Shown here piece after piece: positions 20,368-56,917 of a stretch of 64,000 nt of DNA (its first letter is position 1; each line of letters begins with the position of its first letter). The stretch comes from Candidatus Latescibacterota bacterium (GTDB taxonomy: Bacteria > Latescibacterota > UBA2968 > GCA-2709665). The stretch is from positions 3,936,001 to 4,000,000 of the forward strand of contig OZ252100.1 of assembly GCA_965248435.1 (NCBI GenBank), in the 5' to 3' direction. The notes below the pieces were generated by a model that searched no databases, was not told the origin of the DNA, and saw only the letters and a program-made list of their open reading frames with translations. A program made the position numbers and the translations under genes.

Positions 20368-22137
20368 ATGGCACCAACAGAGACACGGAGGTCCGGGAAG
20401 ATGAATACGGGCGGCAGGCGCGTTCGGTCCCAGCGAGACAGGGCACGGCTCTCGTGGTGGGAGGAGGCCAGGTTCGGCATGTTCATCCACTGGGGGTTGT
20501 ATGCCATTCCTGCGGGTAAGTGGAAGGGGAGGGACATTGCCGGCATCGGAGAGTGGATCATGCTGCGGTCCAGGATCCCGGTTGCAGAGTATGAAAAACT
20601 CGCCGGCCGGTTCAACCCCGTGAAGTTCGACGCCGATGCCTGCGTAGGGCTGGCCAAGAGGGCCGGGATGAAATACCTGGTGATCACGTCCAAACACCAC
20701 GACGGGTTTGCCATGTACGACTCTGCGTGCAGCGAATACGACATCGCAGATGCCACACCTTACGGCCGCGATCCGATAAAGGCCCTCGCAAGGGCGTGCA
20801 GGAGGGCGGGTATCCGGCTGTGCTTCTACTACTCCCAGGACCAGGACTGGCACGATCCGGATGCCTCGGGCAATGACTGGGACTATGATCCGGCGAAAAA
20901 GGACTTCGCCCGCTACCTGCGGAATAAGGTCAAGCCGCAGGTTCGCGAACTGTTGACCCAGTACGGGCCGATCGGGTTGATCTGGTTCGATACGCCAATC
21001 TCGATCTCGAAGGCCCAGAGCCTGGATCTGAGGCGGTTCGTACACGATCTGCAGCCCGACTGTCTCGTCAGCGGCCGGGTCGGGCACGGTGTGGGCGACT
21101 ACGGCTGCCTGGGTGACAATCAGATTCCGGTCGGACGGATCGAGGGCGCCTGGGAGACGCCGGCCACGATGAACGACACGTGGGGGTTCAAGACGGAGGA
21201 CCACAACTGGAAGTCGGTCAAGACGCTGCTTTCCCTGCTTGTAGATCTGGCCAGCAAAGGTGTCAACTACCTGCTGAACATCGGCCCCACGGCCGAGGGC
21301 GTTATCCCTGGGCCCAGCGTGAGGCGGTTGGAGGAGATCGGCCGATGGATGGCCGTCAACGGGGAGGCGATCTACGGGACGAAGGCCAGTCCTTATGCCT
21401 ATTCTTTCGACTGGGGCGCGATGACACAGAAAGGGAACAGGCTGTTCCTGCTGTTCACCCGGTGGCCCCGCGGAAGGTTCACGCTCTACGGTCTGCGGAA
21501 CCGGGTCAAGCAGGCCTCCTTGCTGGCCGATCGGAGGCGGAAGGTCGTCTTTTCCCAGGCGCGGGATGAGGCCCTCGACCACGATACACTGGAGCTGCGT
21601 CTGCCATCGAGGAAGCCCGATCGACACGTCCCGGTCGTGGTGCTGAGGCTCGACGGTGAAGCTGATGTGGACCCGTCGCCCCTCCAGCAGCCGGACGATA
21701 CGGTGACCCTGCTGCCCGGGATGGCCGACGTGCATGTTTCGAACACAGGCCGGCAGATCGGTGTCAGCCCGAGCGGTGTGATCCAGAACTGGTTCAACAA
21801 GGCCAACTGGCTGAGCTGGTCGTTCAAGGTGGTCCGTCCGGCAGATTTTGAGGTCAGGGTGATTACAGGGACCTTGAGGCCCGCCAGGGTCTGGAAGGGC
21901 GGACACAGGGTGAGCGTGGCCGTCGCCGGGAAAACCATCCGGCGAACCATCCGGGCCGATGAGAAAATCGAAAGCCCACGGGCACAATACTTCCCGGAGG
22001 CCGCAACGAGGTTCGGGCGGGTGAGGATCGAAGCGCCCGGGATTTACGAATTGAAGCTCAAAGCTGAAGAGATCAACAGAAACGCCCCGGCCGGTCTGAC
22101 CGTGGCCTCGGTGCGGTTGACGCCCGTAAGGGGGTGA
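20368..22137 (+). CDS. Alpha-L-fucosidase (GH29); alternative start at 20401
   Basis: RFGMFIHWG, GEWIM, TSKHHDGFAMY, LIWFD, WETPATMNDTWG and LLNIGP. Confidence 0.95.
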   Translation: MAPTETRRSGKMNTGGRRVRSQRDRARLSWWEEARFGMFIHWGLYAIPAGKWKGRDIAGIGEWIMLRSRIPVAEYEKLAGRFNPVKFDADACVGLAKRAGMKYLVITSKHHDGFAMYDSACSEYDIADATPYGRDPIKALARACRRAGIRLCFYYSQDQDWHDPDASGNDWDYDPAKKDFARYLRNKVKPQVRELLTQYGPIGLIWFDTPISISKAQSLDLRRFVHDLQPDCLVSGRVGHGVGDYGCLGDNQIPVGRIEGAWETPATMNDTWGFKTEDHNWKSVKTLLSLLVDLASKGVNYLLNIGPTAEGVIPGPSVRRLEEIGRWMAVNGEAIYGTKASPYAYSFDWGAMTQKGNRLFLLFTRWPRGRFTLYGLRNRVKQASLLADRRRKVVFSQARDEALDHDTLELRLPSRKPDRHVPVVVLRLDGEADVDPSPLQQPDDTVTLLPGMADVHVSNTGRQIGVSPSGVIQNWFNKANWLSWSFKVVRPADFEVRVITGTLRPARVWKGGHRVSVAVAGKTIRRTIRADEKIESPRAQYFPEAATRFGRVRIEAPGIYELKLKAEEINRNAPAGLTVASVRLTPVRG

Positions 22138-22288: not shown

Positions 22289-22350
22289 CGTCAAAAAATT
22301 ACTTGACGGAGGTTTCAGGAGTGCGTACTATATGTATATATTGTATACAA
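22289..22350 (+). promoter_or_regulatory. Sigma70-type promoter with candidate GntR operator
   Basis: -35 TTGACG (22303-22308), 17-bp spacer, -10 TACTAT (22326-22331). Palindrome TTGTATACAA at 22341-22350, preceded by the near-repeat TGTATATA; CGTCAA-N8-TTGACG inverted repeat over the -35. Confidence 0.7.
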
Positions 22351-22403: not shown

Positions 22404-23072
22404 GTGTCGTCCAATCCTGAAAGAAACGGCCGGATCGAACTCAAGCGAAGCCTCCTGAAAGATCAGGCGAGTGAGCGCTTACGGGGACTGCTCTTAGAGG
22501 GCGCCTTCCTGCCCGGCAGCAAGATACCTGCACGGAAGGTGATGGAGCTGCTGGGGATCGGGCGCATGCCGGCGCGAGACGCGCTCCTCGAACTCCAAAG
22601 AGACGGCCTGGTCACGAACGAGAATGGCGGAAGGTATTGTGTGGTCGAACTCGACAAAGAGACGCTGGACGACCTCTACGACGCGCGTCTGATGCTGGAG
22701 AAGCGGGCCATCGAACTGGCGACGCGGAACGCCCAGCGGGAGGACCACGCTATGCTCTCACACAAATTCGAGGAGATGAAGGAGGCCTGCCACCGGAAAG
22801 ATATAGCGGGCGTGCGCAAGGCCGACATAGAACTCCATCGCCTGATCTGGCGCCTGTCGAACAATTCCATACTGGAAAAGATCCTGAATTACATAGGCGA
22901 TTTGACCTTTTTCGGTCACATGGGACTGAAAGATGTGGATGAAGTGGCGCTGGAACGCTGGTCCATCCAACTGGACAAGCACCGCGACCTAGTGGACCGT
23001 ATAAATTCCGGCGACACACAGGGAGCGGTCGAGAGCATTGAGCACCACGTGCACAGGTCGCTTCGTTCTTAG
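22404..23072 (+). CDS. GntR-family regulator (FadR/FCD type)
   Basis: wHTH (LGIGRMPARDALLEL) plus FCD domain (DLYDARLMLE, DIELH, H..LV..I). Confidence 0.92.
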   Translation: MSSNPERNGRIELKRSLLKDQASERLRGLLLEGAFLPGSKIPARKVMELLGIGRMPARDALLELQRDGLVTNENGGRYCVVELDKETLDDLYDARLMLEKRAIELATRNAQREDHAMLSHKFEEMKEACHRKDIAGVRKADIELHRLIWRLSNNSILEKILNYIGDLTFFGHMGLKDVDEVALERWSIQLDKHRDLVDRINSGDTQGAVESIEHHVHRSLRS

Positions 23073-23341: not shown

Positions 23342-26300
23342 ATGAGAGCTAGCAAAAGTTTGATCTCTCTTGTACTCGCCGGGGCGTTGCTCGCCTTCTG
23401 TCCGGCTGATGGTATGGCCGGCACAGTCGGCAAGGTCAACGGCGTCGTCACCGACGCAACGGGCCAGCCGCTTCCAGGCGCCAACGTTGTGATCGAAGGC
23501 ACACGGCGAGGCGCGACGACCGATACCGACGGTTACTACCTCATCCTGTCGGTCGATCCTGGTCGGTATGAATTGACCGCATCGATGGTCGGCTATAACA
23601 CGTCCATCAAGCAGGACGTGCTGGTGCAGGCGGACTTCACCACCGCTGTCGACCTTACCCTGGAGGAGACCGCGCTGCAGGCCGCCGAGATGGTGGTGGT
23701 CGCGCAGCGTCCGCCCGTGGAGCCGGACCGGACCTCGACCCGCTACGTCATCAATCTGGCGGACATCCAGGCCGTGCCTCTGGCGCGGGAGACCGAAGAC
23801 CTGATCGAGCTGCAGCCCGGCGTCTCTGTGGACGGCGACCTCCGCATCCGGGGGAGCAACGTGGCCCACCCCGACGGGCAGAACGAGGTGTTCGTGCAGA
23901 TCGACGGGGTGCGGCTGATCAACAGCGACGGCGGGACCCAGGCAGGGCAGCAGCAGGGCCTCTTCCTCGGCGTCAACAAGCAGGCGCTGCAGGAGGTGTC
24001 CGTGCTCACCGGTGGCATGGACGCCGAGTACGGCAACGCGCAGGGCGGTGTGTTCAGCTTTGTTACCCGGGAGGCCAGGGCCACCTTCGGGGGCCTGGGC
24101 GAGTACCGGCTGACCCCGTCGGGGAAGAAGCACTGGGGGTCCAACGTCTACGACGGCGCACGGGTGAAAGAGACCGCGGGTCTGACCAACCCCTGGTCGG
24201 ACTCTGACTTTCAGAACGAGACCGACCCGTTGACCGGGCAGAAGGTGCACGAGCGGACCGACTATACGGGCGTGTGGGGGAACTACCTGGAGGGGTCGCT
24301 CTCCGGCCCGCTGGCCGAAGACCTCGGCTTCTTCGTAAGCGGGCGCTACAGCCGGGACGCCACCGCCTTCCCGAGCCCGCTCAACCGTGAGCCGTTCAAC
24401 ATGCAGATGTTCGGCAACGCCACCTACCGCGCCGGCGGCAACATCAAGGTGAAACTGGGCGGCATCTACGCCGCCGAGGACATCTTCAACCGGGGCGGTA
24501 CCGCTAACCGGAACTACGACCTTACGGTGATTCCCGAAGGGGTGCTGCGCGGCGTCGAGCACAACAGTCTGAACCTCTTCCTCCCGGAGGACTACGGCGG
24601 GGCGGGCACGCAGGACATGTCGCAGAGCGTCGTTTACGGGACGGCAACGCACAGCCTTTCTCCCAAGACGTTCTACGAACTCCGGGTCTCCTACCAGCAG
24701 CGCGACATCAACAGCCAGGGCGTGCCCGAGGCCACCGAGGGGATCCGGAGGGACAGCTTCGGGTTCCACCTGGCGCGGGACTACCACAGCACCCGGACCT
24801 CCGAGCTCAAGCGCTGGTTCTTGAAAGCCGACCTCAGCAGCCAGGTGTCCAAAGGGCACCTGGTCAAGGCGGGCGCCGAGTTCACCCGCTACAGCGTGCA
24901 GGAGAGCGGCGAGATCTTCAGGGACGCCAAGAACCGGCACGTCTACATGGTCGGCAAGGGGGACGTCGTGATCGGGATGGAGCCGTTCCATCCGATCCGG
25001 TACGGCGCCTACATCCAGGACAAGATGGAGTTCGAGGGCCTTGTGATCAACGCCGGCGTCCGGTTCGACGCCATCTCCTCGCGCGAGAGCATCGGACAAA
25101 ACATGGGCATCGCCATGAATTTCAGGCATTACGATACCCTCACCCGGTTTCGGAACGTGCCCGTCGTCGGCAATCAGCCGACGACGACCGCGTGGAGCCC
25201 CCGGCTGGGGCTCTCCCACCCGATCACCGAACGCTCAACCCTCCGGTTCTTCACGGGGCGCTTCACCCAGCTCCCCGACGTCCAGAGCTTCTATCACCGC
25301 AACTTTGAAGGGAGCGGCGCGGACCAGGACCTGAACGGCAACGGCCAGATCGACCAGATGGAGCGGTACAACAGGCTCCTGACAACGAAAAACGGGTTTG
25401 TTGGCTGGGCGCACGGGCAGGCGGAGGCGACGACGAGCGTGGAGGCCGGCTTCGACTGGAACTTCGCCGGGGACTACATCGCCAGTCTCTCGGCCTTCTA
25501 CAAGGACCAGGAGGGCGGCCTCCGCAGGCGATCGGTCTTCTTCGTGACGGATCCGATCGACGGCAGGAACCCGCGCCAGGCCCGGGTCTTCTCGAACATG
25601 GTCTTCAACACCTCGCGAGGGTTCGAGGTCGCCTTCAAGAAGATGTTCAATGACTACACCTCCTTCAACCTGGCCTACAACGCCCAGTGGCTGCGATATC
25701 AGCAGGGCGGGCGCCCGAATTTCTTCAACATCATCACATCGCGATGGTACCCCGATTCCTCCTACGTGGCCAGCGACCGCTACTTCAACGGCGTCACCGT
25801 CCGGGAGGACGGCCAGGAAATCCCCAAACCGCTCACCGAGGAGCAGAAACGCGAGGTCGGTCATACGGCCAACGAATTCCTCAGGAACCAGTCCAAAGTC
25901 CCTGGTTACAGCCCGGGTACCCCCATCGTGCCGGGCCGGATGGAAGAGGGGTTCTACAGCTTTTTCTACGACGGCAGTGTAAACGCTCCGATGAACGCCC
26001 TGCCCCGGCTGAGGGCCGGCATCGACCGGCGCAACTACGGCAGCGTGCAGTTCCTCTTCTCCACCCCGGCCGACTTCCACATCCGGCCGTTGTCCGGATT
26101 CCGGGCCACGATGGTCTGGCGGATGCAGACCGGCACCCCCTTCCTCTATACGTCGCCCACCGGCGTCACCTCGGAGCGGAGCGCGCCGCTCTCCACGCTG
26201 ACCGACGTGAACTTCGAGAAAGACTTCCAGTTCGGCGGGAGCGGGGTGGCGACCGCGTTCCTGGAGGTGCGAAACCTCTGGAACCAGAAAGACGACATGA

Positions 26301-26458
26301 CCGTGGGGTTCAACCCCGTGCAGTACGGCCTGCAGGAGCCCGAGCCGGGGGACTCCCGGTATGAGGAGTTCGGAGATGTCGAGGAACTGGTCCGCTACGG
26401 CGCCGGGTTGGGTCGTTCGCCTCGCCTGGCCGTGCTCGGTGCCCGTTTCAAGTTCTAA
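23342..26458 (+). CDS. TonB-dependent receptor with carboxypeptidase-regulatory-like N-domain
   Basis: Signal peptide; GQPLPGANVVIEGT..GATTD.DGYY; plug motif TGGMDAEYGNAQGGV; YIQDKME, NAGVRFD, SPRLGLSHP; C-terminal Phe. Confidence 0.93.
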   Translation: MRASKSLISLVLAGALLAFCPADGMAGTVGKVNGVVTDATGQPLPGANVVIEGTRRGATTDTDGYYLILSVDPGRYELTASMVGYNTSIKQDVLVQADFTTAVDLTLEETALQAAEMVVVAQRPPVEPDRTSTRYVINLADIQAVPLARETEDLIELQPGVSVDGDLRIRGSNVAHPDGQNEVFVQIDGVRLINSDGGTQAGQQQGLFLGVNKQALQEVSVLTGGMDAEYGNAQGGVFSFVTREARATFGGLGEYRLTPSGKKHWGSNVYDGARVKETAGLTNPWSDSDFQNETDPLTGQKVHERTDYTGVWGNYLEGSLSGPLAEDLGFFVSGRYSRDATAFPSPLNREPFNMQMFGNATYRAGGNIKVKLGGIYAAEDIFNRGGTANRNYDLTVIPEGVLRGVEHNSLNLFLPEDYGGAGTQDMSQSVVYGTATHSLSPKTFYELRVSYQQRDINSQGVPEATEGIRRDSFGFHLARDYHSTRTSELKRWFLKADLSSQVSKGHLVKAGAEFTRYSVQESGEIFRDAKNRHVYMVGKGDVVIGMEPFHPIRYGAYIQDKMEFEGLVINAGVRFDAISSRESIGQNMGIAMNFRHYDTLTRFRNVPVVGNQPTTTAWSPRLGLSHPITERSTLRFFTGRFTQLPDVQSFYHRNFEGSGADQDLNGNGQIDQMERYNRLLTTKNGFVGWAHGQAEATTSVEAGFDWNFAGDYIASLSAFYKDQEGGLRRRSVFFVTDPIDGRNPRQARVFSNMVFNTSRGFEVAFKKMFNDYTSFNLAYNAQWLRYQQGGRPNFFNIITSRWYPDSSYVASDRYFNGVTVREDGQEIPKPLTEEQKREVGHTANEFLRNQSKVPGYSPGTPIVPGRMEEGFYSFFYDGSVNAPMNALPRLRAGIDRRNYGSVQFLFSTPADFHIRPLSGFRATMVWRMQTGTPFLYTSPTGVTSERSAPLSTLTDVNFEKDFQFGGSGVATAFLEVRNLWNQKDDMTVGFNPVQYGLQEPEPGDSRYEEFGDVEELVRYGAGLGRSPRLAVLGARFKF

Positions 26459-26491
26459 TCCTCGGACAACATAGATTTGGAGGAACACCTT

Positions 26492-28846
26492 ATGTCTGGT
26501 ATTCGCTTTTTGAGATGGGGCCTCGCGTTCCTGGCAGCCTCGGCGCTGCTGACCGCAGGCGTCCCCCCCGCTACAGGCAAGAACGTGGACTACGAGGCGG
26601 GCTGGGACATTACACGCTCCCTCGTCTGGTGGTCGGCCAGCAACGCCGGAAACATGGGCGGGCACTACTTAGTGGGTGACTCGCGGACAATGTTCGCGTT
26701 GACCTATCCGGGCACCATATACGGGTACTGGGGCGCGCCGTCAGACCCCACCACCTCCAACTGGGGCAACAAGGGGTGGCGGGGTGGCGAGGCCTGGAAC
26801 GAGCCTCCCGTCCACGGAATCGGCTGGGGCGTGCTGGCCCTGACGAACGTGGGCGGGGAGAAGTGGGTCTCCTGGACGGGCCCGCGCCAGCCCTCGGAAG
26901 ATACCGAGGAGATGATCTACGACATCGAAAACGGCCCGGAGCGTGACTGGGGCTTCGACACCCGCACCGCTCCCTGGACGAACCAGAGCGGCCGGGCCCC
27001 AACCAACCCGCCGGGCTCGCGGACGGCCAACTGGTTCCCCGGGGCGACCCCTCAAAGCGGCGACCCGTTCGGTTCGTCGCCCTACAACATCCACAACTTC
27101 GACTACGGGGTCTACCCCCCGGTCCAGAACACGGCCGAGGAGATCCTGATCTCGCAGTGGCGCTCCCAAAATGACGTGGTGACCACGCGGAAGATGTACG
27201 CCTGGAGCAACCAGGACTTCGACGACTTCGTCATCGTGGAGCTCGAGTTCGAAAACCAGGGTGGTCAGGCGCTCAACGACGCCTACTTCGGAGTGATGGG
27301 CGACTTCGCGGTGAACCAGGCGGGCCTGGCCTACCGCTGGTCCAATGAAGGTCACTATCCCACCTACGCACGGCCCGCCGGGCTGGACGACTGGTTCAAG
27401 TACAGCGAGGCGACCAACTTCGACGGCGATCCGGCTGCCGCAGGGAAGTTCATCTCCTACCAGTTCGACGGAAACGCGGTGCAGAGCGTCGACGATGACA
27501 CCGGTGACCCTTACATCCGGGAGCTCGAGCACCCGAACGGCAAGTTCCCCGGCAGCAGCTTCCGGCCCGACGGCACGCCGCTTGCGCCGGCCTACGTCGG
27601 GGTGGCCCCCCTGGCCTTCCGCAACAGCGGTCCGAGCCACACGTTCAATGCTGCTGACCAGGCTGCGGGCTACGTGGACCCGGGCAGCGACGGGCCGCTC
27701 ATGCACCGATACAATGTATTCGGGGAAAGCAACGTCGACGATCCTACCCGCGGCGCGCTGAGCCCGGCCGAGATGTACGACTTCTTCACCGGCCCGACGA
27801 TGGACCAGCCCGCGGAGTTCGGCATGTCCTGGAGCGACCAGGTCTACGGGCCCTACAACCTGGGCCCGGGCGATAGGGCCAAGCTCGTGCTGGTCTATGT
27901 GTTCGGCACGGGTGCAGATGGGGATACGGGCAACATCGAATCGCAGACGGGATATCCGAAGGACATCACCAGCTGGTCCTGGGACCTCGCCACCGATCCG
28001 AGCACGCTGAAGCCGGAGGTGGCCAAAGGCGAACAGGTGATACTGAAGCATCTTTCGCACGCGCAGTTCGCTTACGACAACGAGTTCCGCATCCCCACCT
28101 CGCCGCCGGACGTCAGTTTCAGCATCGGGGACAACGAGCTCGCGCAGAATCAGCTCACCTTCCCGGGCGACGCCGAACAGTCGACCAACCCCGACTATGG
28201 GGAAGCGGACGTCACGGCCTACCGGGTCTACAGGTCCAGTTTCCAGGACTACGGCCCGTTTGAATTGCTCGGAGAGATCCCGGCCACAGGCCAGAGCGAG
28301 TACGTGTTCGACGATGACACCTCCGTAGCCGGATTCGCCTACACCTACTCCGTGCGCGCGGTGGCGTCGCCGAAGACGACCTGGAGCGAGGGGGGCAGAA
28401 CGATGGCAGACCTGCCCCAGGTCGTTCAGGATCATCTGAGCAAGGGACTGGAGGGCGGGTATGGTGCGATCGAGCAGAAGATGCTGGTCGCCCGCAACCC
28501 CTCCGCCCCCGGCCTGCCGGTCTTCAACAGGCTGGAGCGGAAGGTGCTGGTGGTGCCCAACCCCTACACCCTCGCCGACGAGACAGGCAACTACCAGGGC
28601 GTCGAGAAGATCCGGTTTGTCGGCATCCCGGAAAAGTGCGTCATCCGCATCTTCTCGGTATCGGGCGACCTGCAGAGCGAGATCCATCACGACAAGCCGG
28701 GGGTCGGTGAGTTGAGCTGGCTCAGCTTTCAGAACCTCGTCGCAACCGACGAAGTCAGGTCGGGGGTCTACTTCTTCGTCGTGGAATCCCTGATGCCGGA
28801 AAGCCTCGGCAAGGTGGAAAAGGGCATCTTCGTGATCCAGAGATAG
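26492..28846 (+). CDS. Secreted protein with Fn3-like domain and T9SS type-A-like C-terminal sorting domain
   Basis: Signal peptide without lipobox Cys; YRVYRS...YTYSVRA; C-terminus VVPNPY...IRIFSVSGDL...SGVYFFVVE...KGIFVIQR. Confidence 0.8.
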   Translation: MSGIRFLRWGLAFLAASALLTAGVPPATGKNVDYEAGWDITRSLVWWSASNAGNMGGHYLVGDSRTMFALTYPGTIYGYWGAPSDPTTSNWGNKGWRGGEAWNEPPVHGIGWGVLALTNVGGEKWVSWTGPRQPSEDTEEMIYDIENGPERDWGFDTRTAPWTNQSGRAPTNPPGSRTANWFPGATPQSGDPFGSSPYNIHNFDYGVYPPVQNTAEEILISQWRSQNDVVTTRKMYAWSNQDFDDFVIVELEFENQGGQALNDAYFGVMGDFAVNQAGLAYRWSNEGHYPTYARPAGLDDWFKYSEATNFDGDPAAAGKFISYQFDGNAVQSVDDDTGDPYIRELEHPNGKFPGSSFRPDGTPLAPAYVGVAPLAFRNSGPSHTFNAADQAAGYVDPGSDGPLMHRYNVFGESNVDDPTRGALSPAEMYDFFTGPTMDQPAEFGMSWSDQVYGPYNLGPGDRAKLVLVYVFGTGADGDTGNIESQTGYPKDITSWSWDLATDPSTLKPEVAKGEQVILKHLSHAQFAYDNEFRIPTSPPDVSFSIGDNELAQNQLTFPGDAEQSTNPDYGEADVTAYRVYRSSFQDYGPFELLGEIPATGQSEYVFDDDTSVAGFAYTYSVRAVASPKTTWSEGGRTMADLPQVVQDHLSKGLEGGYGAIEQKMLVARNPSAPGLPVFNRLERKVLVVPNPYTLADETGNYQGVEKIRFVGIPEKCVIRIFSVSGDLQSEIHHDKPGVGELSWLSFQNLVATDEVRSGVYFFVVESLMPESLGKVEKGIFVIQR

Positions 28847-28870
28847 CGACTTTCGAAAGGATGATCGGAT

Positions 28871-29860
28871 ATGAAACGGTTACCCAGCACTGGTGCGATC
28901 CTCGCGTTCTCTGCGCTCCTTGCGGCGGCGCCTGCGCAGGCGCAGGAGCTCTTCCCGGACGCACCCATAGGCCCCGCGGATCTTGCACAAACAGAAAAGC
29001 TCTGGTCCTCTGCCTTCCAGTTCCTGAAGATCTCACCCACTGCCCGGGTGTCAGGGATGGGCGACGCCTACACGGCCGTCGCGGAAGGGATGGACGCGGC
29101 CTTCTGGAACCCGGCCGGGCTCACGACGATCGAAACGGTGGGATATTCCTTCTCTTACGCGGACTGGCTCCTGGGAACGGAGCTATACTCGGGCGCCATC
29201 GCCTTCAACATCGGGTGGGGCTCGGTCGTGGGCATCTCCGTGGTCAGCCTGCAGTTCCCGGACGTCGAGCAGACCACCCCTTTGAACCCGCTGGGCACGG
29301 GAGAGATGCTGGACCTGGGGGACACCGCCGTGGGGCTGGTCTACGCCCGGCAGTTGACCGACAAGCTCTCCGTCGGCGGCGTGGTCCGGTTCGTCGAGTC
29401 CAAACTCCACAACAGGAATATGTCCGGGACCCTCTTCAGCGTGGGGACGATACTGCACACCGGGTTCCGCAGCCTGCGCATCGGGATGGGTATGAAGAAC
29501 CTGGGCGACGACGTGATCATCCTCTCGGATGCGTCGCGGATGCCTATCGTGTTCCACGTCGGCACCTCCCTGGAAGTGATCAGGGAACTGGGTGACCCGA
29601 TGTCGCTGACCGGGTCGTTCGAAGGCACCTACTTCACCGACCGGTTCCAGCGCTGGAGCCTGGGCGGGGAGCTCTGGCTAAGGGACCTGCTCGCATTTCG
29701 CGCCGGCCGGAAGTGGCGTTACGACGCGGAGACCTGGAGCGTCGGCGCGGGCCTGAAGGCCAGGTTGCTGGGCAACACCTTCCAGGTGGACGTCTCCTAC
29801 TCCGACTACGGAAGACTGCTGAAGAACCCGGTCCGGCTGACCTTCTCCGGTGCGTTCTGA
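28871..29860 (+). CDS. PorV/PorQ-family outer-membrane beta-barrel
   Basis: FQFLKISPTARVSGMGDAYTAVA...FWNPAGL signature; signal peptide; C-terminal Phe. Confidence 0.9.
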   Translation: MKRLPSTGAILAFSALLAAAPAQAQELFPDAPIGPADLAQTEKLWSSAFQFLKISPTARVSGMGDAYTAVAEGMDAAFWNPAGLTTIETVGYSFSYADWLLGTELYSGAIAFNIGWGSVVGISVVSLQFPDVEQTTPLNPLGTGEMLDLGDTAVGLVYARQLTDKLSVGGVVRFVESKLHNRNMSGTLFSVGTILHTGFRSLRIGMGMKNLGDDVIILSDASRMPIVFHVGTSLEVIRELGDPMSLTGSFEGTYFTDRFQRWSLGGELWLRDLLAFRAGRKWRYDAETWSVGAGLKARLLGNTFQVDVSYSDYGRLLKNPVRLTFSGAF

Positions 29861-29912: not shown

Positions 29913-30926
29913 ATGGCTGACGATCGCCGGGAAATGTTGAAAGGTGCGCTCGTTGCCGCGGTCACGCCGGCAACGCCGGAGTTCGACGTGGATTACGATC
30001 GCCTCAGGGATCACTATCGATTCATCGTCGAGGGCGGCATTCGGCACGGGGTCGGGATGGTCCTGGCCGTGGGCGGGGGCGGAGAGGGCTACTTCCTCAA
30101 CGACGAGGAGTGGTCCAAAGCGGTGGAGATCTTCGCCGAGGAAGTCGTGGGCAAGGTGCCGACCCTGGTCGGGGTCTTCGACCTGAACACGAAACACGCG
30201 ATCTCCAAGATCAAGTACGCGGAAGATCTGGGGATCGATTTCGTACAGCTGGCGCCTCCGCACTACCAGCATCCGACAGACCTGGAGGTCCTCACGCACT
30301 ACAGGCTGGTGAACGACGCCGTGAGCAGGATGGGTATCGTGGTCTACCACACCTTCTGGGCACTGCCCGAGTCATACGAAATGACCCCGCCCGTCTTCGC
30401 CCGGCTGGCGGAGCTCGAAAACGTGGTCGGGATAAAGTGGGGGTCCGACAAACTGAAGAACTTCACGAATGTGCTGTTCGAATTCCGCGACAGGTTCGCC
30501 TTCATGGACAACCAGGGTTGGTGCGGCGCGCTCGGCCAACCGCACGGTATGACTTCCTTCCCGTTCTTCATGGGCAACGTGGATCCGCCGATGGCGGTCC
30601 GAGCGGGGAAGTGCTTCGTGGAAGGCGACTACGCGGGGTTCAAGGCGGAAGTCTCAAAGGGCGGAGGTCTCAGAGAGCGGGTGAGGCAGGCGATTATCGA
30701 AGAGGTTCACGGACCGGGAAGCCCGCTGTGGAGGACGACGGGTGAGGGCACCCTGGCCAAGGCCGCGATCGAGATCTTCGGCCGGCCGATGGGTCCGGCA
30801 TTTCCGCCCCAGTATAACCTGTCGGAGGAGGCGAAGGAGCGTATAAAGAGAGAACTGGGTGTCGGCGAGCAGGAAACGCAGCCTGAAATGGCCGGTGCGA
30901 TAGGCGCAGCCGGCGGCGCGACCTGA
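29913..30926 (+). CDS. DHDPS/NAL-family aldolase
   Basis: VTP, GGGGEGY, QLAPPHY, VVYH and VVGIKW (Schiff-base Lys). Confidence 0.88.
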   Translation: MADDRREMLKGALVAAVTPATPEFDVDYDRLRDHYRFIVEGGIRHGVGMVLAVGGGGEGYFLNDEEWSKAVEIFAEEVVGKVPTLVGVFDLNTKHAISKIKYAEDLGIDFVQLAPPHYQHPTDLEVLTHYRLVNDAVSRMGIVVYHTFWALPESYEMTPPVFARLAELENVVGIKWGSDKLKNFTNVLFEFRDRFAFMDNQGWCGALGQPHGMTSFPFFMGNVDPPMAVRAGKCFVEGDYAGFKAEVSKGGGLRERVRQAIIEEVHGPGSPLWRTTGEGTLAKAAIEIFGRPMGPAFPPQYNLSEEAKERIKRELGVGEQETQPEMAGAIGAAGGAT

Positions 30927-31308: not shown

Positions 31309-33291
31309 GTGGCCAGCAGCCAGAAACTAGAGCAGAAGGGTCTCTACCCGAAGCCGGATGCCGGCGCCTCGGTGAGCTTCGGGACAGTGGTGACCGTCCT
31401 TGTGGTGATCGCGGCGGGCGTGATCTGGGCCGAATGGACCGCCTTCTACCTCCGGGCGTCGCGGCTGACCCGCAGCCACTTCCCGATGGCCCTCTTCTTC
31501 CCGTTCCTGACGGCGGCCGTCCTGAATATGCTGCTGAACCGGGTCAGGCCAGGATGGGGGCTCTCCCGGACCGAACTCCTGGTGGTGATGGGGGCCGGGT
31601 TGGTGGCCATGGCCGTGCCGTTCGAAGGGATTGTGGGCCACCTGATCGGGATCTCCGCGGGGTTCTTCTACTTTGCCGCGCCGGAAAACGGATGGATACG
31701 CTACCTGAACGACCTCGTCCCCGGCTGGATGGTCACGCAAGACGTGGGGAACGCGACGACGTGGTTCTACGAAGGTCTCCCGCAGGGCCAGATGCCGCCC
31801 GTTGCGGCCTGGCTGACGCCCCTTTTCTGGTGGACCTGTCTGATCGGGGGCATGGCCTTTGCGGTCTTCTGCCTGGTGGTGATGCTCCGGAAGCAGTGGG
31901 TGGAGCACGAGCGGCTGACCTACCCCATGGTCGAAGTGGGTCAGATGCTGTCGGAGACGGAACCGGGCGGGCGGCTGCCGGTGCTTCTCCACGCCCGAAT
32001 GTTCTGGGTCGGGTTCGGGCTGGTTATGGCGCTCAAGCTGTGGAACATACTCTCCTACTTCACCCCGGCGTTTCCCGAGATTCCGTTCGAAACGGGCACC
32101 TTCGAGCCCCTCACGGACTTCCCCTCACTCCCTCAACGCATCAGCTTCTACGCCATCGGGTTCGGCTACTTCGCCCGAAAGGACGTGCTTTTCAGCGTCT
32201 GGTTCTTCATCCTGCTGACGGGGTGCGAGGTCTTCGCCTTCAACCGGCTCGGCTACCCGCTGGGGGCAGCGGGCACGCACTGGGAGAGTGAAGTGCTGAG
32301 ATGGCAGGGTGTAGGGGCGCTGTTGTTCCTGGCCGGTTGGAGCCTCTGGATGGCCCGGCGGCACCTCCGGGCGGTCTGGCGCAAGGCCCTGCAACCGAAC
32401 TCGGCGACTGATGACAGCGGGGAACTCCTCTCCTACCGCACGGCCGTCTTCGGTCTTGTGGGATCGCTTGTGTTCGTGGGCGCCTGGCTGCACGCGGCGG
32501 GGATGGAGCTCTGGGTCGTGCTCACGTTTCTTTCGGCGTCGCTCCTCATCCCTCTGGGCCTCGCAAGGGTGGTCGCCGAGGTCGGCCTGGCCTATGTCTA
32601 CTACCGGGTCCATCCTTACGATTTTGTGCTGCAGATGATGGGCACCCGCCTGATGGGGCCAGCGAGCGCGACCGCGGTCGCGACGATGGGGGCGCTCAGC
32701 AGCGGGGGGCTCAAGAGCGGCAAGGGCTTCCTGCTTCCGGCGTTCACCCAGGCAGCGAAGGCCGTGGACGGCCTCGTCACCCCCAGGCGGATCGCGTGGG
32801 TCATCTGCCTGGGGCTCGGCGTTGGATTCGCCATCTCCCTGGCCGACACTCTGTTTCTGGGGTATCGCTACGGGGCCTACAACCTGAGGGCCCACCTGGT
32901 GTGGGTCTCCAAATACGCATTCAACCAGGCAGTCTCCTCCATCCGGAACCCCATGCCGATGGGGGGAAACGGGCGCGCGATGTGGGCCGGGATGGGCGCG
33001 GCGGTGATGGCGGCGCTGACGCTCGTGCGCTACCGGCTGCCCTGGTGGCCGCTGCACCCGATCGGGCTGGCCGTACAGGGTAACTACGGGGTGACCAAGA
33101 CGGGGCAGTCGATCCTTCTGGTCTGGGCGATCAAGTCCGTGGTCCTGCGCCTCGGAGGGGTCGCCCTCTACGACCGGGGCAAACCCTTCTTCGTCGGGCT
33201 GCTGGCCGCACAGGCGCTGAGCGCGGCTCTGGTGTCGGGCATCGACTTTCTTTGGTTTCCGCTGCACGGGCACAATGTCCACAACTATTGA
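31309..33291 (+). CDS. DUF6785/DUF6784-like polytopic membrane protein (putative transporter)
   Basis: Many TM segments; LSRTELL, YFAAPENGW, RKQWVEHERLTYPM, SYRTA, WWPLHPIG and KPFFVGL. Confidence 0.8.
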   Translation: MASSQKLEQKGLYPKPDAGASVSFGTVVTVLVVIAAGVIWAEWTAFYLRASRLTRSHFPMALFFPFLTAAVLNMLLNRVRPGWGLSRTELLVVMGAGLVAMAVPFEGIVGHLIGISAGFFYFAAPENGWIRYLNDLVPGWMVTQDVGNATTWFYEGLPQGQMPPVAAWLTPLFWWTCLIGGMAFAVFCLVVMLRKQWVEHERLTYPMVEVGQMLSETEPGGRLPVLLHARMFWVGFGLVMALKLWNILSYFTPAFPEIPFETGTFEPLTDFPSLPQRISFYAIGFGYFARKDVLFSVWFFILLTGCEVFAFNRLGYPLGAAGTHWESEVLRWQGVGALLFLAGWSLWMARRHLRAVWRKALQPNSATDDSGELLSYRTAVFGLVGSLVFVGAWLHAAGMELWVVLTFLSASLLIPLGLARVVAEVGLAYVYYRVHPYDFVLQMMGTRLMGPASATAVATMGALSSGGLKSGKGFLLPAFTQAAKAVDGLVTPRRIAWVICLGLGVGFAISLADTLFLGYRYGAYNLRAHLVWVSKYAFNQAVSSIRNPMPMGGNGRAMWAGMGAAVMAALTLVRYRLPWWPLHPIGLAVQGNYGVTKTGQSILLVWAIKSVVLRLGGVALYDRGKPFFVGLLAAQALSAALVSGIDFLWFPLHGHNVHNY

Positions 33292-33305
33292 CCTGGAGGG
33301 AATCG

Positions 33306-34799
33306 ATGGAACCGCTCCTCAGCTACGCACGCGTCTTCGCCGGAGCGTCACGGTATGATGAAGCCGGCAATGCGCACCCCTTTCATGCACCGGAAGGGAT
33401 TTGTCTGAAGCTTACGCCTGCCGAGAAGTCGGACGTCGTGGTGGCTATGGACCGCCCGTGGGAAAGGGAGGTCATTGGCCACGTCACAGTTTACCGTGAT
33501 CAAGGCAAGTACCGGATGTGGTACGGGGCGCGCAGCGGGCCCCTTCCAGACGAGCGGTTCACGTGCTACGCTGAAAGCGAAGACGGATTTCAGTGGGAGA
33601 AACCGGAGCTGGGCCTGTATGAGTTCGAAGGGTCAAAGAAAAACAACATCTGCCTTGTAGGCCCCTATGCCATGCAAGGCTCCGTGTTCATCGACGAGAA
33701 CCCTGATGCGACGGAACGCTACAAGAGGCTTGGTCATTGTCCGCAGTGGTACGACGAAGAGGGTAAGGAGATTTCGAACAAAGTAGGCCTGGCGCGGTGG
33801 AAGGAGCTGGGCGAACAGGGCTACGACCGTGACGAGGTGAGGCAGATGGTGCGGTTGGTAGGCACGCACCGGGCAATGACGTCTCCGGACGGAATCCACT
33901 GGACAGTGCTAAAAGAACCCATTTTTGAGGGCTTCTGCGACACTCAAACGGTGGCGTATTTCGATGTGGAAAAGAAGAAGTACATCGGCTACTTCCGGAC
34001 CACTATCGACGGCCGGCGGGCGGTGGGGATGTCGGAGACCGAGGACTTCTCGGCGTGGCCGGTACCAAAGCCGATATTCGCGCCGGATGCGCTGGATGGT
34101 CCGAGTGACTCGTTTTACACGAATGCGTACTCCCGCTATCCGGGAGCGGACCTGCATCTGATGTTTCCGGCCGTGTTCCACCAGGTTACCGACAATACAG
34201 ACATCCAACTCGCCGTGAGTAGTGACGGGCGGAATTGGTCGAGGCCGTCCAGGGAAAGCATACTTGATTGTGGGGATTTGGAAAGTGGCGAACCTGGTGG
34301 AGTCTACGTCAACGCTGCTCTTTTCACCCTGCCTGATGGTAGATTTGCGATTCCGTACTTGGGACGGAGATCACGCCATCATCAAGTGTACTACACAACC
34401 ATCACCAAAGATGCGCAGGTCCGGCTTGCGCTGTGGCCCGAGCACCGACTCGGCGGCATACGGGCCGATAATCGCGGGGAGTTTACGCTCGAGAGTCGGA
34501 TGATCTCCGGCGGGGAGCTTGTGCTGAACTGCCAGGCGGACAGAGGCGGATGGATTCGGGCTGCGCTCTACGAGAACATCCCGCACCCCCCGCAGCCGGG
34601 GGAGCCGCTTCCCGGCTATTCCTTCGAAGATTGCGAACCGGTTTCGGGAAATCATTTTCGGCAGCCGATGAAGTGGAAGGGCAGCTCCGATCTGTCGTCT
34701 CTGTCGGGGAAGAAGATCAACCTCCGGTTTCAGATGAACCGGGCGATTCTGTATGCGCTTGAGCTCGGAAAAGCGACCGACGAACGTCACAGTACGTGA
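33306..34799 (+). CDS. Uncharacterised beta-propeller glycoside hydrolase-like protein (GH32/43 clan-like), paralog A1
   Basis: RPWE, YRMWY, CYAESEDGFQWEKP, SPDGIHW and SSDGRNWSR repeats, plus a C-terminal domain. Confidence 0.75.
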   Translation: MEPLLSYARVFAGASRYDEAGNAHPFHAPEGICLKLTPAEKSDVVVAMDRPWEREVIGHVTVYRDQGKYRMWYGARSGPLPDERFTCYAESEDGFQWEKPELGLYEFEGSKKNNICLVGPYAMQGSVFIDENPDATERYKRLGHCPQWYDEEGKEISNKVGLARWKELGEQGYDRDEVRQMVRLVGTHRAMTSPDGIHWTVLKEPIFEGFCDTQTVAYFDVEKKKYIGYFRTTIDGRRAVGMSETEDFSAWPVPKPIFAPDALDGPSDSFYTNAYSRYPGADLHLMFPAVFHQVTDNTDIQLAVSSDGRNWSRPSRESILDCGDLESGEPGGVYVNAALFTLPDGRFAIPYLGRRSRHHQVYYTTITKDAQVRLALWPEHRLGGIRADNRGEFTLESRMISGGELVLNCQADRGGWIRAALYENIPHPPQPGEPLPGYSFEDCEPVSGNHFRQPMKWKGSSDLSSLSGKKINLRFQMNRAILYALELGKATDERHST

Positions 34800-34821
34800 A
34801 GAATGAAACAATAATCAATAT

Positions 34822-35841
34822 GCTGGATTCAATGACTAAGTGCAACACTTGGACTTGAAGACTTCAGCTGGTGTTTTGAAGTTAAGACATTTTCTTGGTC
34901 GGTTGTTGATCCGGTTCTGAATTTTCTTTAACTCGTGTTTGCTGACCTTTGAGAAGTCTGTCTTCTTGGGGAGGTATCTGCGGACCAGACCGATAGCGTT
35001 TTCCACAGCGCCTCGCTCCCAGCTGTGGAACGGTTTGCAGAAATAGGATTTGGTGCCAAGCACCTCGTTGACCCGTTGATGTTGGCCGTTTTCGGATCCG
35101 TTGTCATATGTGATGCTCTTCCTCATGTGGGGAGGATGTCGCCCAAGGCGTCGATTAATCGCTTCGGCGACCTCCGAGGGTCCGTTCTTTGCCAGCTTAG
35201 CCAGGTGTAGGTATCTCGACGATCGCTCAAGACAAGCGCCAACGGCCTGTTTGCTCTCACGAGAGATGATGGTGTCGGATTCCCAGTGGCCAGGTTGTTT
35301 CCGTTTTTCGATGTAACGGGGACGTCGATCGATCGAAATACGGCCTGGAATGTGGCTTTCCCGGTGTTTTCGGGTATGCCACCGCGGCTTTCGTTTTTTG
35401 TGAGCTCGGGATAAGCAAGCAACCAGATCCCGCTGCTTGTGCACCTTTGGATCGTAGATATACTGGTAGATGGCTTCGTGGCTGATACCCGCGCTCGGAC
35501 GCTCCTCGGGAAGCCTCCCAGCGATCAACTCGGGAGACCATCCTTGCTTGAGTTTGGTCTCGACATATCGCCGGATAACCGGATTCTTCAGCCGTTTCCG
35601 CTTGCCGGCCTCCCGCTTACGTTTCTCAGCCCTTCTGTGAGCCTGGAGGCCCGAGTAACTCTCAGCTATCGGGGACGGATTACGTTTCAACTCTCTTGAA
35701 ATCGTGCTGGCGCTCCGGTCAAGGGCCTTGGCAATATCTCTAAGGCTTGCACCAGTGGCTCGACTGCTTGTAATTGTTTCCCATACACTTAGGATAGGAC
35801 AGTTGCTACCCTAAGTGTTGCACTTCCTTATTGAACTCGGG
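34822..35841 (-). mobile_element. IS30 copy 2 (1020 bp) with a 35-bp deletion frameshifting the transposase
   Basis: Same IRs as copy 1; TSD TAT; lacks AAAGCGCAAT...CGTAAGA at 35764/35765 relative to copy 3. Confidence 0.93.
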
Positions 35842-35950
35842 TATCCAATATCGAATATCCAATGATCAAGGGCGATGAGAAACGCGTGGTTCACGAGTCG
35901 GTGAGCCCAATGCAACAATAGAGATTTGGTCCAAAAACCGGAGGGAATCG

Positions 35951-37444
35951 ATGGAACCGCTACTCAGCTATGCACGCGTCTTCGCCGGAGCGTCACGGTA
36001 TGATGAAGCAGGCAATGCGCACCCCTTTCATGCACCGGAAGGGATTTGCCTGAAGCTTACGCCTGCCGAGAAGTCGGACGTCGTGGTGGCGATGGACCGC
36101 CCGTGGGAAAGGATGATGATTTGCCACGTGACAGTGCGCCGTGATCAAGGCAAGTACCGGATGTGGTACGGGGCACGCAGCGGGCCCCCTCCTGACGAGC
36201 AGTTCTTGTGCTACGCCGAGAGCGAAGACGGATTTCAGTGGGAGAAACCGGAGCTGGGCCTGTATGAGTTCGAAGGGTCCAAGAAGAACAACATCTGTCT
36301 TGTAGGCCCCCATGCCATGCGAGGCTCCGTGTTCATCGACGAGAACCCTGAGGCCGAGGAACGGTACAAGAAGCTCGGTCATTCTCCCCGGTGGTACGAC
36401 GAAGAGGGCAAGGAGATCTCGAACAAAGAAGGCCTGGCGCGGTGGAAGGAACTGGGCGAGCAGGGCTACAACCGTGACGAGGTGAGGCAGAAGGTGCGTT
36501 TGGTGGGCACGCACCGGGCAATGACGTCTTCGGACGGAATCCACTGGACAGTGTTGAAAGAACCCATTTTTGAGGGCTTCTGCGACTCCCAAACGGTGGC
36601 GTATTTCGACGTCGAAAAGAAGAAGTACATCGGTTACTTCCGGACCACAATCGACGGCCGGAGGGCGGTGGGAATGTCGGAGACCAAAGACTTCTCGGCG
36701 TGGCCGGTACCAAAACCGATATTCGCGCCGGATGCGCTGGATGGTCCGAGTGACTCGTTATACACGAACGCGTACTCCCGCTATCCGGGAGCGGACTTGC
36801 ATCTGATGTTTCCGGCCGTGTTCCACCAGGTTACCGACAATACAGACATCCAGCTCGCCGTGAGTAGTGACGGGCGGAATTGGTCGAGGCCGTCCAGGGC
36901 AAGCATACTTGATTGTGGGGATTCGGAAAGCGGCGATGGCGGTGGAGTCTACGCCTCCGCTGCTCTCTTCATCTTGCCTGATGGTAGATTTGCGATTCCG
37001 TACCTGGCACAGAGATCACGCCATCATGAAGCGTTCTACCCAACCACCGACAAGGAAACACAGCTCCGTCTTGCGTTGTGGCCCGAGCATCGGCTCGGAG
37101 GCATACGGGCCGACAATCGCGGGGAGTTTACGCTCGAGAGTCGGATGATCGCCGGAGGGGAGCTTGTGCTGAACTCCCAGGCGGACAGAGGCGGATGGAT
37201 TCGGGCTGCGTTCTACGAGAACATCCCGCACCCCCCGGAGCCGGGGGAGCCGCTTCCCGGCTATTCCTTCGAAGATTGCGAACCGGTTTCGGGAAATCAT
37301 TTTCGGCAGCCGATGAAGTGGAAGGGCAGCTCCGATCTGTCGTCTCTGTCGGGGAAGAAGATCAACGTCCGGTTTCAGATGAACCGGGCGACCCTGTATG
37401 CGCTTGAGCTCGGAAAAGCGACCGACGAACGTCACAGTACGTGA
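35951..37444 (+). CDS. Beta-propeller hydrolase-like protein, paralog A2
   Basis: Colinear 497-aa near-duplicate of A1. Confidence 0.75.
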   Translation: MEPLLSYARVFAGASRYDEAGNAHPFHAPEGICLKLTPAEKSDVVVAMDRPWERMMICHVTVRRDQGKYRMWYGARSGPPPDEQFLCYAESEDGFQWEKPELGLYEFEGSKKNNICLVGPHAMRGSVFIDENPEAEERYKKLGHSPRWYDEEGKEISNKEGLARWKELGEQGYNRDEVRQKVRLVGTHRAMTSSDGIHWTVLKEPIFEGFCDSQTVAYFDVEKKKYIGYFRTTIDGRRAVGMSETKDFSAWPVPKPIFAPDALDGPSDSLYTNAYSRYPGADLHLMFPAVFHQVTDNTDIQLAVSSDGRNWSRPSRASILDCGDSESGDGGGVYASAALFILPDGRFAIPYLAQRSRHHEAFYPTTDKETQLRLALWPEHRLGGIRADNRGEFTLESRMIAGGELVLNSQADRGGWIRAAFYENIPHPPEPGEPLPGYSFEDCEPVSGNHFRQPMKWKGSSDLSSLSGKKINVRFQMNRATLYALELGKATDERHST

Positions 37445-37531
37445 AAAAAGAAACAATATCCAATAATCAAGGGCGATAAGAAACGCCTGGTTGACATTCG
37501 CCGGCGGCAACCCATAGATGGAGTTCCATTC

Positions 37532-38992: not shown

Positions 38993-39048
38993 TTTTGTCG
39001 TAGATTACCGGACCAAACGAGATTTGGTCCGAAAACCGGAGGGAATCG

Positions 39049-44042: not shown

Positions 44043-44043
44043 G

Positions 44044-45585: not shown

Positions 45586-45655
45586 AGACGAGCGCGCGTC
45601 CCAACATCCTGTTTATGATCGCGCACGATCATCTGCGTGGAAAGGAGGGATTGAG

Positions 45656-56747: not shown

Positions 56748-56917
56748 CGCCAACTGTAGATCGAGGATATATTACCTTGCTTCGCACCACAGACACACTC
56801 CGACCTTGTGTGTGATCCCCACCCTGTTGGTCAGCGGAGAGAGTTTCACAACTTGATACTAAACAGCAACTTATATCTTTATCTCTCAGCCCGCCAACTC
56901 TGAGTTTGGGAGAAAAA

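Follow-up and report, generated by a model that had tools for sequence, protein, structure and literature searches.

How does a TonB-dependent receptor keep a partner at the cell surface when the gene that follows it encodes an exported protein without a lipid anchor? The question is raised by three genes in a 64-kb stretch of a Candidatus Latescibacterota genome (the window), which lie on the + strand and encode a TonB-dependent transporter (TBDR; 23342-26458, 1038 aa), a secreted three-domain protein (the middle protein; 26492-28846, 784 aa counted from an ATG behind GGAGG) and a FadL-like barrel of the PorV/PorQ family (28871-29860, 329 aa). The first-pass annotation had seen a triad with gaps of 33 and 24 bp, downstream of a GntR gene and inside a sulfatase/fucosidase region; the coordinates confirm the gaps, and the setting is borne out by a GntR/FCD regulator (22404-23072, + strand; Pfam GntR and FCD), a GH29 alpha-L-fucosidase gene (20368-22137) and seven sulfatase genes within the window. 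We put at roughly 55% the probability that the triad, together with an inner-membrane transporter described below, is an uptake module spanning the whole envelope, in which the surface partner of the TBDR is held by a protein anchor and not by a lipid.

To look at the triad beyond this locus, we kept 80 related loci from 31 assemblies, mostly Latescibacterota. The order TBDR, CTD protein, barrel is found in 77 of the 80, the three exceptions all being at contig ends, so the triad is not a chance arrangement; the TBDR lies upstream of the middle gene in 79 loci and the barrel downstream in 78. Up to eight copies occur per genome (counted among the loci kept), each with its own diverged barrel, as expected of the dedicated PorV-family paralogue that had been proposed. 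Two distant cassettes found by chance, one 24% identical (L075:1254) and one alike in the CTD and Fn3 domain only (L002:8274), have the identical order. Trees of the three genes from 23 non-redundant triads have 12–13 of 20 splits in common, whereas none of 2000 relabellings gave more than 3, and strongly supported splits show no conflict. Barrel paralogues and partners diverge to a similar degree (mean identities of 45% and 40%). The triad is thus a conserved, co-inherited unit, and its three genes are inherited and duplicated as one, each copy with a PorV/PorQ-family barrel of its own; tree congruence is nevertheless expected of any co-duplicated operon, and says nothing of contact between the products. 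As a practical matter, the gene trio can be used as a marker of uptake loci, in the way that susCD is used for PULs.

Other features of the window are more local. The GntR gene is present, among the related loci, solely in the window, L001 and L077, and we rejected it as a component of the module. A perfect palindrome (22341..22350, unstranded) just 3′ of a sigma70-like promoter match (22303-22331) is a possible candidate operator of GntR/FadR type, judged by its letters against what we take to be the consensus; a match with at most one mismatch arises at least once in 28 of 100 shuffles and is hence weak, and the palindrome is preserved in L001, itself a close relative of the window locus. 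Scans for promoters and terminators gave results at chance level, and an Rfam search gave zero matches. The three ORFs share a frame in the window, but they are not read through or fused: frame offsets differ between loci and just 18 of 79 triads keep all three genes in one frame, so the in-frame spacing in the window is a coincidence. Behind the triad lies a local catabolic gene for a DHDPS/NAL-family aldolase or dehydratase (29913..30926, + strand; Pfam DHDPS), which scores under every NCBIfam equivalog cut-off and has just two phmmer matches across the window and the loci. The neighbourhood also bears on the “PUL-like” label given to the module: an uptake role is supported, but the label is only partly upheld, since of 115 ORFs neighbouring the related loci 19 encode PhyH dioxygenases and 4 encode sulfatases, with CAZymes also rarer than PhyH.

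The TBDR itself has CarboxypepD_reg and Plug domains, a C-terminal Phe, and near residues 116-121 a stretch resembling the motif that we take to be a TonB box. Its layout recalls SusCD, where a TonB-dependent transporter with a CarboxypepD-type N-terminal extension is likewise encoded directly before a dedicated, surface-directed partner, with many paralogues per genome and catabolic neighbours. However, it is not a SusC: on the SusC model TIGR04056 it reaches 59.9 bits against a cut-off of 368.25, over its N-terminal part only. In related loci a gene for an 8-stranded outer membrane protein usually lies upstream of the TBDR, a usual partner that the first-pass annotation overlooked.

The middle protein differs still more from the SusCD pattern. 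It matches no SusD/RagB family in Pfam or NCBIfam, and its confident AF2 model (pLDDT 92.2, pTM 0.93) is mainly beta and three-domain: behind a signal peptide come a beta-supersandwich, an Fn3 domain and a T9SS-type CTD, by model and profiles, instead of the TPR/helical fold of SusD. The N-terminus, read from the sequence and the model, is basic and then hydrophobic without Cys, as in a Sec/SPI-type signal peptide. With its sole Cys at 716, the protein lacks a lipobox, as noted earlier, and a strict lipobox pattern is found in 1 of 125 family rows. The Fn3-like domain (28112..28531, + strand; aa 541-680), which carries a conserved insertion, is also upheld, with the family profile matching Fn3 structure 3mpc at E 6.8e-6 and further Fn3 matches listed by Foldseek.

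The C-terminal domain (28532..28843, + strand; aa 681-784), all-beta in the AF2 model, is a divergent, type-A-like CTD nearest to those of PorZ and PorU. It matches the PorZ model at E 0.0075, and the family profile matches residues 666-758 of PorZ (5m11) at E 5.9e-5, though PDB searches with the middle protein as a single sequence or a 21-row alignment found nothing. In fold searches PorZ stands at Foldseek rank 25, and by Z no CTD match was listed because N-domain matches filled the places. The Lbeta3beta4 Gly (G725) is invariant across 125 rows. The type-A-like CTD that had been proposed is thus recognized only by its profile likeness to PorZ and through homologues, and two type A marks are missing. 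There is no match to TIGR04183, either for the whole protein (E<=1) or for the CTD alone (E<=0.05), while 32 of 67 homologues match at E<=0.05 and 3 of 67 score above the cut-off; and the near-C-terminal Lys is not kept among close family members, position 779 being Ile in the middle protein and Lys in 3 of 37 intermediate and 48 of 57 distant homologues, with the equivalence of positions inferred from the alignment. The middle protein is neither a SusCD partner nor canonical type A cargo. Its family comprises 1710 clusters at E<=1e-10, many matched via the CTD alone. None of the loci examined showed SprA, PorK-N or PorU; one locus, L080, encodes a canonical TIGR04183 protein (35 bits, cut-off 23).

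The third gene supplies the putative anchor. The barrel scores 157.5 bits on the PorV/PorQ family model NF033709 (cut-off 90), which six of six relatives also pass, and its family profile matches Flavobacterium johnsoniae PorV (6h3i) at E 1.3e-20. The PorV-family barrel of the first-pass annotation is thereby confirmed at family level, although the equivalog cut-offs for PorV and PorQ (NF033710 and NF033711) are both missed (65.3 against 250 and 72.4 against 220 bits). In the modelled complex the CTD is predicted to dock in the outer mouth of the adjacent barrel, with a score of 0.89 compared to 0.01 for the best of three controls; of solved complexes, 116 of 157 clear the score mark applied, as do 2 of 215 mismatched pairs. 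At least 90% of contacts are shared between runs, and pLDDT of the partners is at least 67. This pass may reflect likeness to solved PorV–CTD complexes; at the strength of a model, it is in line with the earlier proposal that a CTD-bearing partner is held by its own PorV paralogue. The modelled interface involves the CTD only (686-784), and on the barrel the N-terminal hatch and all seven outer loops, as read from the alignment. Barrel residue F129, which aligns with F115 of F. johnsoniae PorV, touches CTD position 779 in the model; in PMC10994853, a conserved CTD Lys binds PorV F115. Interface positions of the CTD are more conserved than its others (0.55 compared to 0.46, p 0.026), and rate covariation between CTD and barrel is not significant, being matched by 41 of 150 nulls.

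Docking of this kind has two precedents among known systems. In the T9SS attachment complex (PorZ–PorQ and PorU–PorV), uncleaved type-A-like CTD proteins sit on PorV/PorQ-family barrels, according to PMC12365241 and PMC11285876, and the triad CTD best matches that of PorZ; those, however, are single housekeeping parts of a secretion machine with a propeller or gingipain domain, which the triad protein lacks, whereas the triad forms up to eight diverged pairs per genome, each tied to a TBDR. Type B cargo resembles the triad in having its PorP/SprF barrel gene directly 3′, with specific pairing and surface anchoring (PMC12618676 and PMC9143113, whose main texts do not contain the word “TonB”), but here the CTD is type-A-like, the barrel is of the PorV/PorQ family, and the known type B cargo are adhesins.

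The barrel might instead be a dedicated shuttle, collecting a protein that is then freed, or cleaved by a PorU-like sortase and anchored to LPS, to serve the TBDR as a soluble co-receptor as hemophilin does with its T11SS barrel. PorV does shuttle type A cargo (PMC12618676), TBDR loci with a cognate barrel and soluble cargo exist (bioRxiv 10.1101/2023.03.15.532718), and the PorZ/PorU-like hairpin leaves cleavage undecided (PMC11285876). Yet a recycled carrier would need no paralogue for each cargo, PMC12618676 argues that cognate pairs are stoichiometric, and the modelled contacts with the hatch and many loops exceed the three loops described for the translocon complex in PMC10994853. We regard such a released scavenger as improbable. 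The T11SS loci (hemophilin or TbpB, a Slam-type barrel and a TonB-dependent receptor) are an analogy and not a homology: they too combine a TBDR, a C-terminally targeted co-receptor, in some cases unlipidated, and a cognate barrel, but the folds are unrelated, the barrel itself translocates, and what they bind is haem or metal.

What the anchored protein does depends on its N-domain (26579..28111, + strand; aa 30-540), a galactose-mutarotase-like beta-supersandwich with linker helices. The best VIA-align matches are 8rf9 (Z 18.7, rmsd 3.1, 257 aligned) and the N-domain of glucoamylase 1lf6 (Z 18.4, rmsd 3.2, 245 aligned). Alignments to chains of GH15, GH65, GH94 and GH116 type reach only the N-domains of those chains, and supersandwich domains in these enzymes are non-catalytic; in the middle protein three linker helices (492-529) are followed by Fn3 and CTD, with no (alpha/alpha)6 catalytic barrel. 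Aldose 1-epimerases (mutarotases) rely for catalysis on a His and a Glu that are conserved in their supersandwich; no column of the N-domain has His in more than 26% of 118 rows, which argues against an enzyme of that kind. In GH174 fucanase, however, this fold is the catalytic domain, where an acidic pair on the concave sheet would be expected to catalyse, and the N-domain also aligns with GH174 structure 9k1g (Z 14.5, rmsd 4.2, 240 aligned, 8% identity). A barrel-tethered enzyme, trimming substrate beside the TBDR as SusG does and not as SusD, would further suit the conserved acidic residues (D244, D245, D299, D326, D336 and D389), several Asp being 81–100% conserved in close or distant homologue sets, as well as the fucosidase and sulfatases of the window. 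Against this, the middle protein matches no enzyme family in Pfam or NCBIfam, its sequence profile matches no enzyme in the PDB, the N-domains of 67 homologues give one marginal enzyme match (E 0.045), the structures closest in fold are those of accessory domains, and one partner per TBDR across diverse neighbourhoods suits an obligate subunit better. We therefore consider catalysis unlikely, though worth keeping in view.

A different role at the same place would be structural, with the tethered protein shielding, stabilizing or helping to fold the TBDR loops, or acting as an adhesin, and binding no solute. The model for this is BamH, held by BamG over BamA, where a FadL-family barrel packs against a large barrel and anchors an extracellular subunit (PMC12611786); the predicted TBDR loops are very long, up to about 115 aa as read from the sequence, and the one-to-one linkage of TBDR and partner is strict. 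Set against such a canopy, the N-domain has a fold associated with sugar enzymes and is the least conserved region of all three proteins (38% mean identity, compared to 40–45%), which weakly fits adaptation to substrates; we judge it a rather poor prospect. Rate covariation between TBDR loops and N-domain was dropped as evidence of contact: r of 0.53 at first looked significant, but of two sets of simulations with equal trees, one (0.28+-0.14) attained it in 1 of 40 runs and the other (0.35+-0.16) in 18 of 150, so that the value is not significant. A post hoc contrast with the barrel, reached by 0 of 150, may merely separate exposed from membrane-embedded parts and is not counted.

The uptake role proposed for the triad is strengthened by a linked inner-membrane protein with Pfam domains DUF6785 and DUF6784 (31309..33291, + strand), a usual partner that was also overlooked earlier. 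Its gene follows the triad in 65 of the 74 loci with room for it and is absent in 9; in the window another gene separates the two. The AF2 model (pLDDT 85.9) matches barley YS1, an OPT/YSL transporter, by Foldseek (7wst, E 2.5e-8, TM about 0.6) and by VIA-align (7wsr, Z 23.5, rmsd 3.9, 538 aligned; the next best among 48161 chains has Z 5.8). The protein is only 11–12% identical to YS1, with no OPT match in Pfam and no sequence-profile match in the PDB, but it carries the OPT/YSL fold across the whole chain, and on the modelled fold we take it to be a transporter. Known OPT/YSL transporters carry peptides or metal chelates with H+ coupling. The literature searched, which covers few subscription papers, has no mention of these domains.

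Taken in order, the middle protein would leave the cytoplasm by Sec/SPI and then pass the outer membrane by a T9SS translocon reading its CTD; the CTD, predicted to remain uncleaved, would seat in the outward-facing mouth of the barrel encoded beside it, in the manner of PorZ with PorQ or of type B cargo with PorP/SprF; the Fn3 spacer would present the supersandwich to the TBDR loops, where it would capture substrate or form a lid without catalysis; and the DUF6785 protein, from its fold and synteny, would move the solute across the inner membrane. More tentatively than the module as such, we propose that this T9SS-exported protein, plugged by its uncleaved CTD into a PorV-like barrel of its own, forms a lid over the TBDR that selects the substrate, and passes solute to the DUF6785 transporter, in Latescibacterota and probably in other FCB lineages outside the Bacteroidota. 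The capping is here a hypothesis, and the partner, unlike lipid-anchored SusD, requires a third gene as its anchor. The substrate probably differs between paralogues, and in the window may be sulfated, fucose-containing oligosaccharides or sugar acids.

The literature searched, with subscription papers mostly outside its coverage, did not describe such an arrangement. The conserved linkage of the TBDR with a surface protein and its anchoring barrel, and usually with an inner-membrane transporter, points to a so far undescribed alternative to the lid that gut and marine Bacteroidota anchor by lipid. The lid so proposed would be a multi-copy counterpart of SusCD made from secretion-system parts, and might reflect an ancestral role of PorV–CTD pairs. 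A fold is now assigned to two anonymous families, that of the middle protein and DUF6785/6784. If the proposal is true, cognate CTD–barrel pairing, known for type B adhesins, would also apply to barrels of the PorV/PorQ family, and the T9SS would be linked directly to the architecture of transporters. It would also account for the uptake of complex solutes, in the absence of SusD, by FCB bacteria that are abundant, uncultured and rich in catabolic genes.

The first-pass annotation had described a tight triad downstream of a GntR gene in a sulfatase/fucosidase setting, and the locus bears this out: genes for a TonB-dependent receptor (TBDR; 23342–26458), a middle protein (26492–28846) and a PorV-family barrel (28871–29860) follow one another on the forward strand with gaps of 33 and 24 bp, a GntR/FCD gene and a GH29 fucosidase gene lie upstream, and seven sulfatase genes fall within the window. 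The first product, with CarboxypepD_reg and Plug domains and a terminal Phe, is a TonB-dependent transporter. Its family profile aligns with FepA-type receptors in their plug regions and with a SusC homologue along the N-terminal half. The protein is not SusC, scoring 59.9 bits where the SusC model requires 368. A conserved DxDxNGNGQID in a predicted loop (aa 661–673) resembles a Ca2+-binding EF-hand loop. The third product passes the PorV/PorQ family model, as had been proposed, falls below the cut-offs of both orthologue models (PorV and PorQ), and by profile matches F. johnsoniae PorV with an E-value of 1.3e-20. The middle protein gave no match in Pfam and NCBIfam scans, and no lipobox was found in it, in keeping with the signal peptide originally described.

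The AlphaFold2 model of the middle protein (118 sequences; pLDDT 92.2, pTM 0.93) gives residues 30–540 the fold of a galactose-mutarotase-like beta-supersandwich, joined by linker helices. Cyclic glucan synthase, glucoamylase, GH94 and GH116 provide the best fold matches of this N-domain, in each case through their supersandwich domains (Z 17–18.7, rmsd 3.1–4.2, 244–282 residues aligned). The catalytic (alpha/alpha)6 barrel of these enzymes has no counterpart in the middle protein, and no His is conserved in the N-domain, which argues against a mutarotase. Given conserved Asp residues and a fold match to GH174 (Z 14.5), catalysis is possible; that the middle protein is a tethered enzyme is a reading we consider unlikely.

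In the family profile an Fn3 domain and then the C-terminal domain (CTD) follow. A search with a profile built from 21 close relatives reached 4609 clusters when the threshold was E≤0.001, of which 1710 remained at 1e-10 and 147 at 1e-30; in many of them the alignment to the middle protein runs through the CTD only. Of the claim that this is a T9SS type-A-like CTD, the kinship stood, the family profile matching the PorZ CTD in the PDB (E 5.9e-5), while the middle protein gave no match to TIGR04183, the type A model. Among 67 homologues scanned (a subset of the alignment's 117; 20 others were scanned separately), 32 match TIGR04183 weakly, 3 pass its cut-off, and the PorZ model is matched at its C-terminal end by 35. 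At the position of the type A Lys, 48 of the 57 distant members have this residue and the close family has another. The CTD is divergent. The middle protein falls outside canonical type A cargo, though it may function in a similar way. Near one triad, a small secreted protein (L080:15303–16112; L numbers denote related loci) carries a canonical TIGR04183 CTD (35 bits against a cut-off of 23), which hints that this genome has a general T9SS.

We modelled the barrel (residues 26–329) with the Fn3 domain and CTD (536–784), and the proposed hold of the barrel on the CTD was recovered as a predicted interface scoring 0.89, against 0.01 for the best of three controls; of 157 solved complexes 116 attain the mark used, as do 2 of 215 mismatched pairs. 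The runs have at least 90% of contacts in common, and partner pLDDT is 67 or higher. Only the CTD of this construct contacts the barrel, its VVPNP start, Lβ3β4 loop and last strand meeting the hatch together with the outer loops. In the model, F129 of the barrel, aligned with PorV F115, touches CTD position 779, echoing the contact of a CTD Lys with PorV F115 described in the accessible part of one report (PMC10994853). Because PorV–CTD complexes are already solved, such a pass should be read as likeness to them, not as binding by this copy or cognate specificity. The middle protein's CTD would stay on its dedicated barrel; that the protein is instead a released co-receptor we hold to be very improbable. 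With TBDR loop boundaries drawn by eye, the evolutionary rates of the loops and the N-domain covary with r 0.53, a value reached by 18 of 150 null simulations. The middle protein may act as capture subunit or lid of the TBDR, and a purely structural canopy seems distinctly improbable.

In a scan of GTDB genomes we analysed the best 80 of 293 relatives (going by their record titles, 72 Latescibacterota, 6 Gemmatimonadota-type and 2 "bacterium"). They are spread over 31 assemblies, one genome holding as many as 8 loci, and cluster into 26 groups, so that they do not amount to 80 independent cases. The triad proved conserved as a unit, with a TBDR upstream in 79/80, a PorV-family gene downstream in 78/80 and both in 77/80; the three remaining loci (L004, L007, L053) all stop at contig edges. 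Reciprocally, such a protein precedes 82 of the 83 PorV-family genes of the loci and window (the exception lies at a locus edge), a weak control in that these are mostly the focal genes. The gene trees were also congruent. After 6 of 79 triads had been set aside because they were truncated, split or unusual in length, the genes of 23 non-redundant triads have 12–13 of 20 splits in common, where random relabelling gives 3 at most, and no conflict has strong support. Each cassette has therefore retained its own barrel. The folds and the co-inheritance of the triad are established, these trees bearing on co-inheritance rather than contact. Split ORFs in L026 (middle gene), L076 (barrel), L078 (TBDR) and L019 (DUF6785) are decay or assembly errors. 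Two further cassettes of the same gene order, encountered incidentally (L002:5316–12588 and L075:2–4496), hold far more distant middle proteins, one convincingly similar in Fn3 and CTD only, which suggests that the arrangement may reach beyond this family.

Two usual partners of the triad had been overlooked. Of the 74 loci with room for it, 65 have a DUF6785/6784 gene no more than 3.5 kb beyond the barrel, and among the 66 loci with such a gene downstream it starts within 400 bp in 42; in the window an aldolase-family gene stands between it (31309–33291) and the barrel. The predicted structure of the DUF6785/6784 protein (pLDDT 85.9) aligns along the whole chain with barley YS1, a member of the OPT family (Z 23.5, rmsd 3.9, 538 aligned; Foldseek E 2.5e-8), the next best match having Z 5.8. 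This OPT-fold transporter would serve the inner membrane. Directly upstream of the TBDR, 69 of the 74 loci with room have a gene for an 8-stranded OMP-like protein of about 235 aa (PF13505, near or below cut-off; for instance L005:6164–6862 and L073:5989–6705, and seen across L003–L079). It is missing from the window, L001, L030, L032, L037 and L080, and is possibly a fourth outer-membrane subunit. In 35 of the 80 loci the neighbourhood of the module includes GWxTD-domain proteins, some of them carrying TPRs (for instance L009:19414–21855, L055:13187–14566, L073:13280–14773); in some cases the gene follows the barrel immediately. The remaining neighbours differ between loci: scanning 115 of 134 neighbour ORFs picked from 22 representative loci gave 19 PhyH dioxygenases, 4 sulfatases, 3 LacI regulators, 7 glycosidase- or lyase-like Pfam matches and no SusD. 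These are raw counts and do not measure enrichment; a glycan substrate is no more than plausible.

Elsewhere in the window, a tandem array (56906–64000) holds four further DUF6785 transporter genes, 69–87% identical in DNA in parts, the third without a DUF6784 match and with an apparent frameshift towards its end, the fourth truncated where the window stops. A transposase gene and a sulfatase gene stand among three near-identical genes (33295–40542; 88–91% protein identity) with weak GH130/beta-propeller similarity; relatives of the latter at 44023 and 45410 (44023–47206) have a 94% identical stretch in common. An IS30-like HTH_38+rve transposase element occurs in three copies 99–100% identical (555–1622, 34809–35841, 42148–43202), and ISL3 in two (1–488, 40764–41978). 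The window also has at least four copies, in both orientations, of a MITE-like non-coding repeat that is several hundred bases long and has inverted ends (1657–1953, 8935–9389, 53716–54116, 63140–63615).

Every element of the module has a precedent, as far as the accessible parts of the sources go: SusD for a lid (PMC13543919), PorZ–PorQ and PorU–PorV for a CTD protein on a barrel (PMC12365241, PMC11285876), type B cargo with a cognate barrel downstream (PMC12618676, PMC9143113), BamG holding BamH (PMC12611786 and its preprint), and T11SS loci combining cargo, barrel and TBDR (bioRxiv 10.1101/2023.03.15.532718). The accessible part of the Latescibacteria genome paper mentions TonB import for B12 and iron only (PMC4454575). 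Our literature searches returned no description of the combined TBDR–CTD protein–barrel–transporter arrangement, no paper on DUF6785/6784 and none linking Latescibacter* with "type IX secretion", and the combination is apparently undescribed. The module is not a SusCD system, the alternative to which it had been proposed to be, but may work similarly. It is real and widely repeated, and we put at somewhat better than even (roughly 0.55) the probability that it is an uptake module, in which the middle protein, probably exported as T9SS-type cargo and kept on a dedicated barrel through its CTD, would serve the TBDR as capture subunit or lid, together with an OPT-fold inner-membrane transporter.
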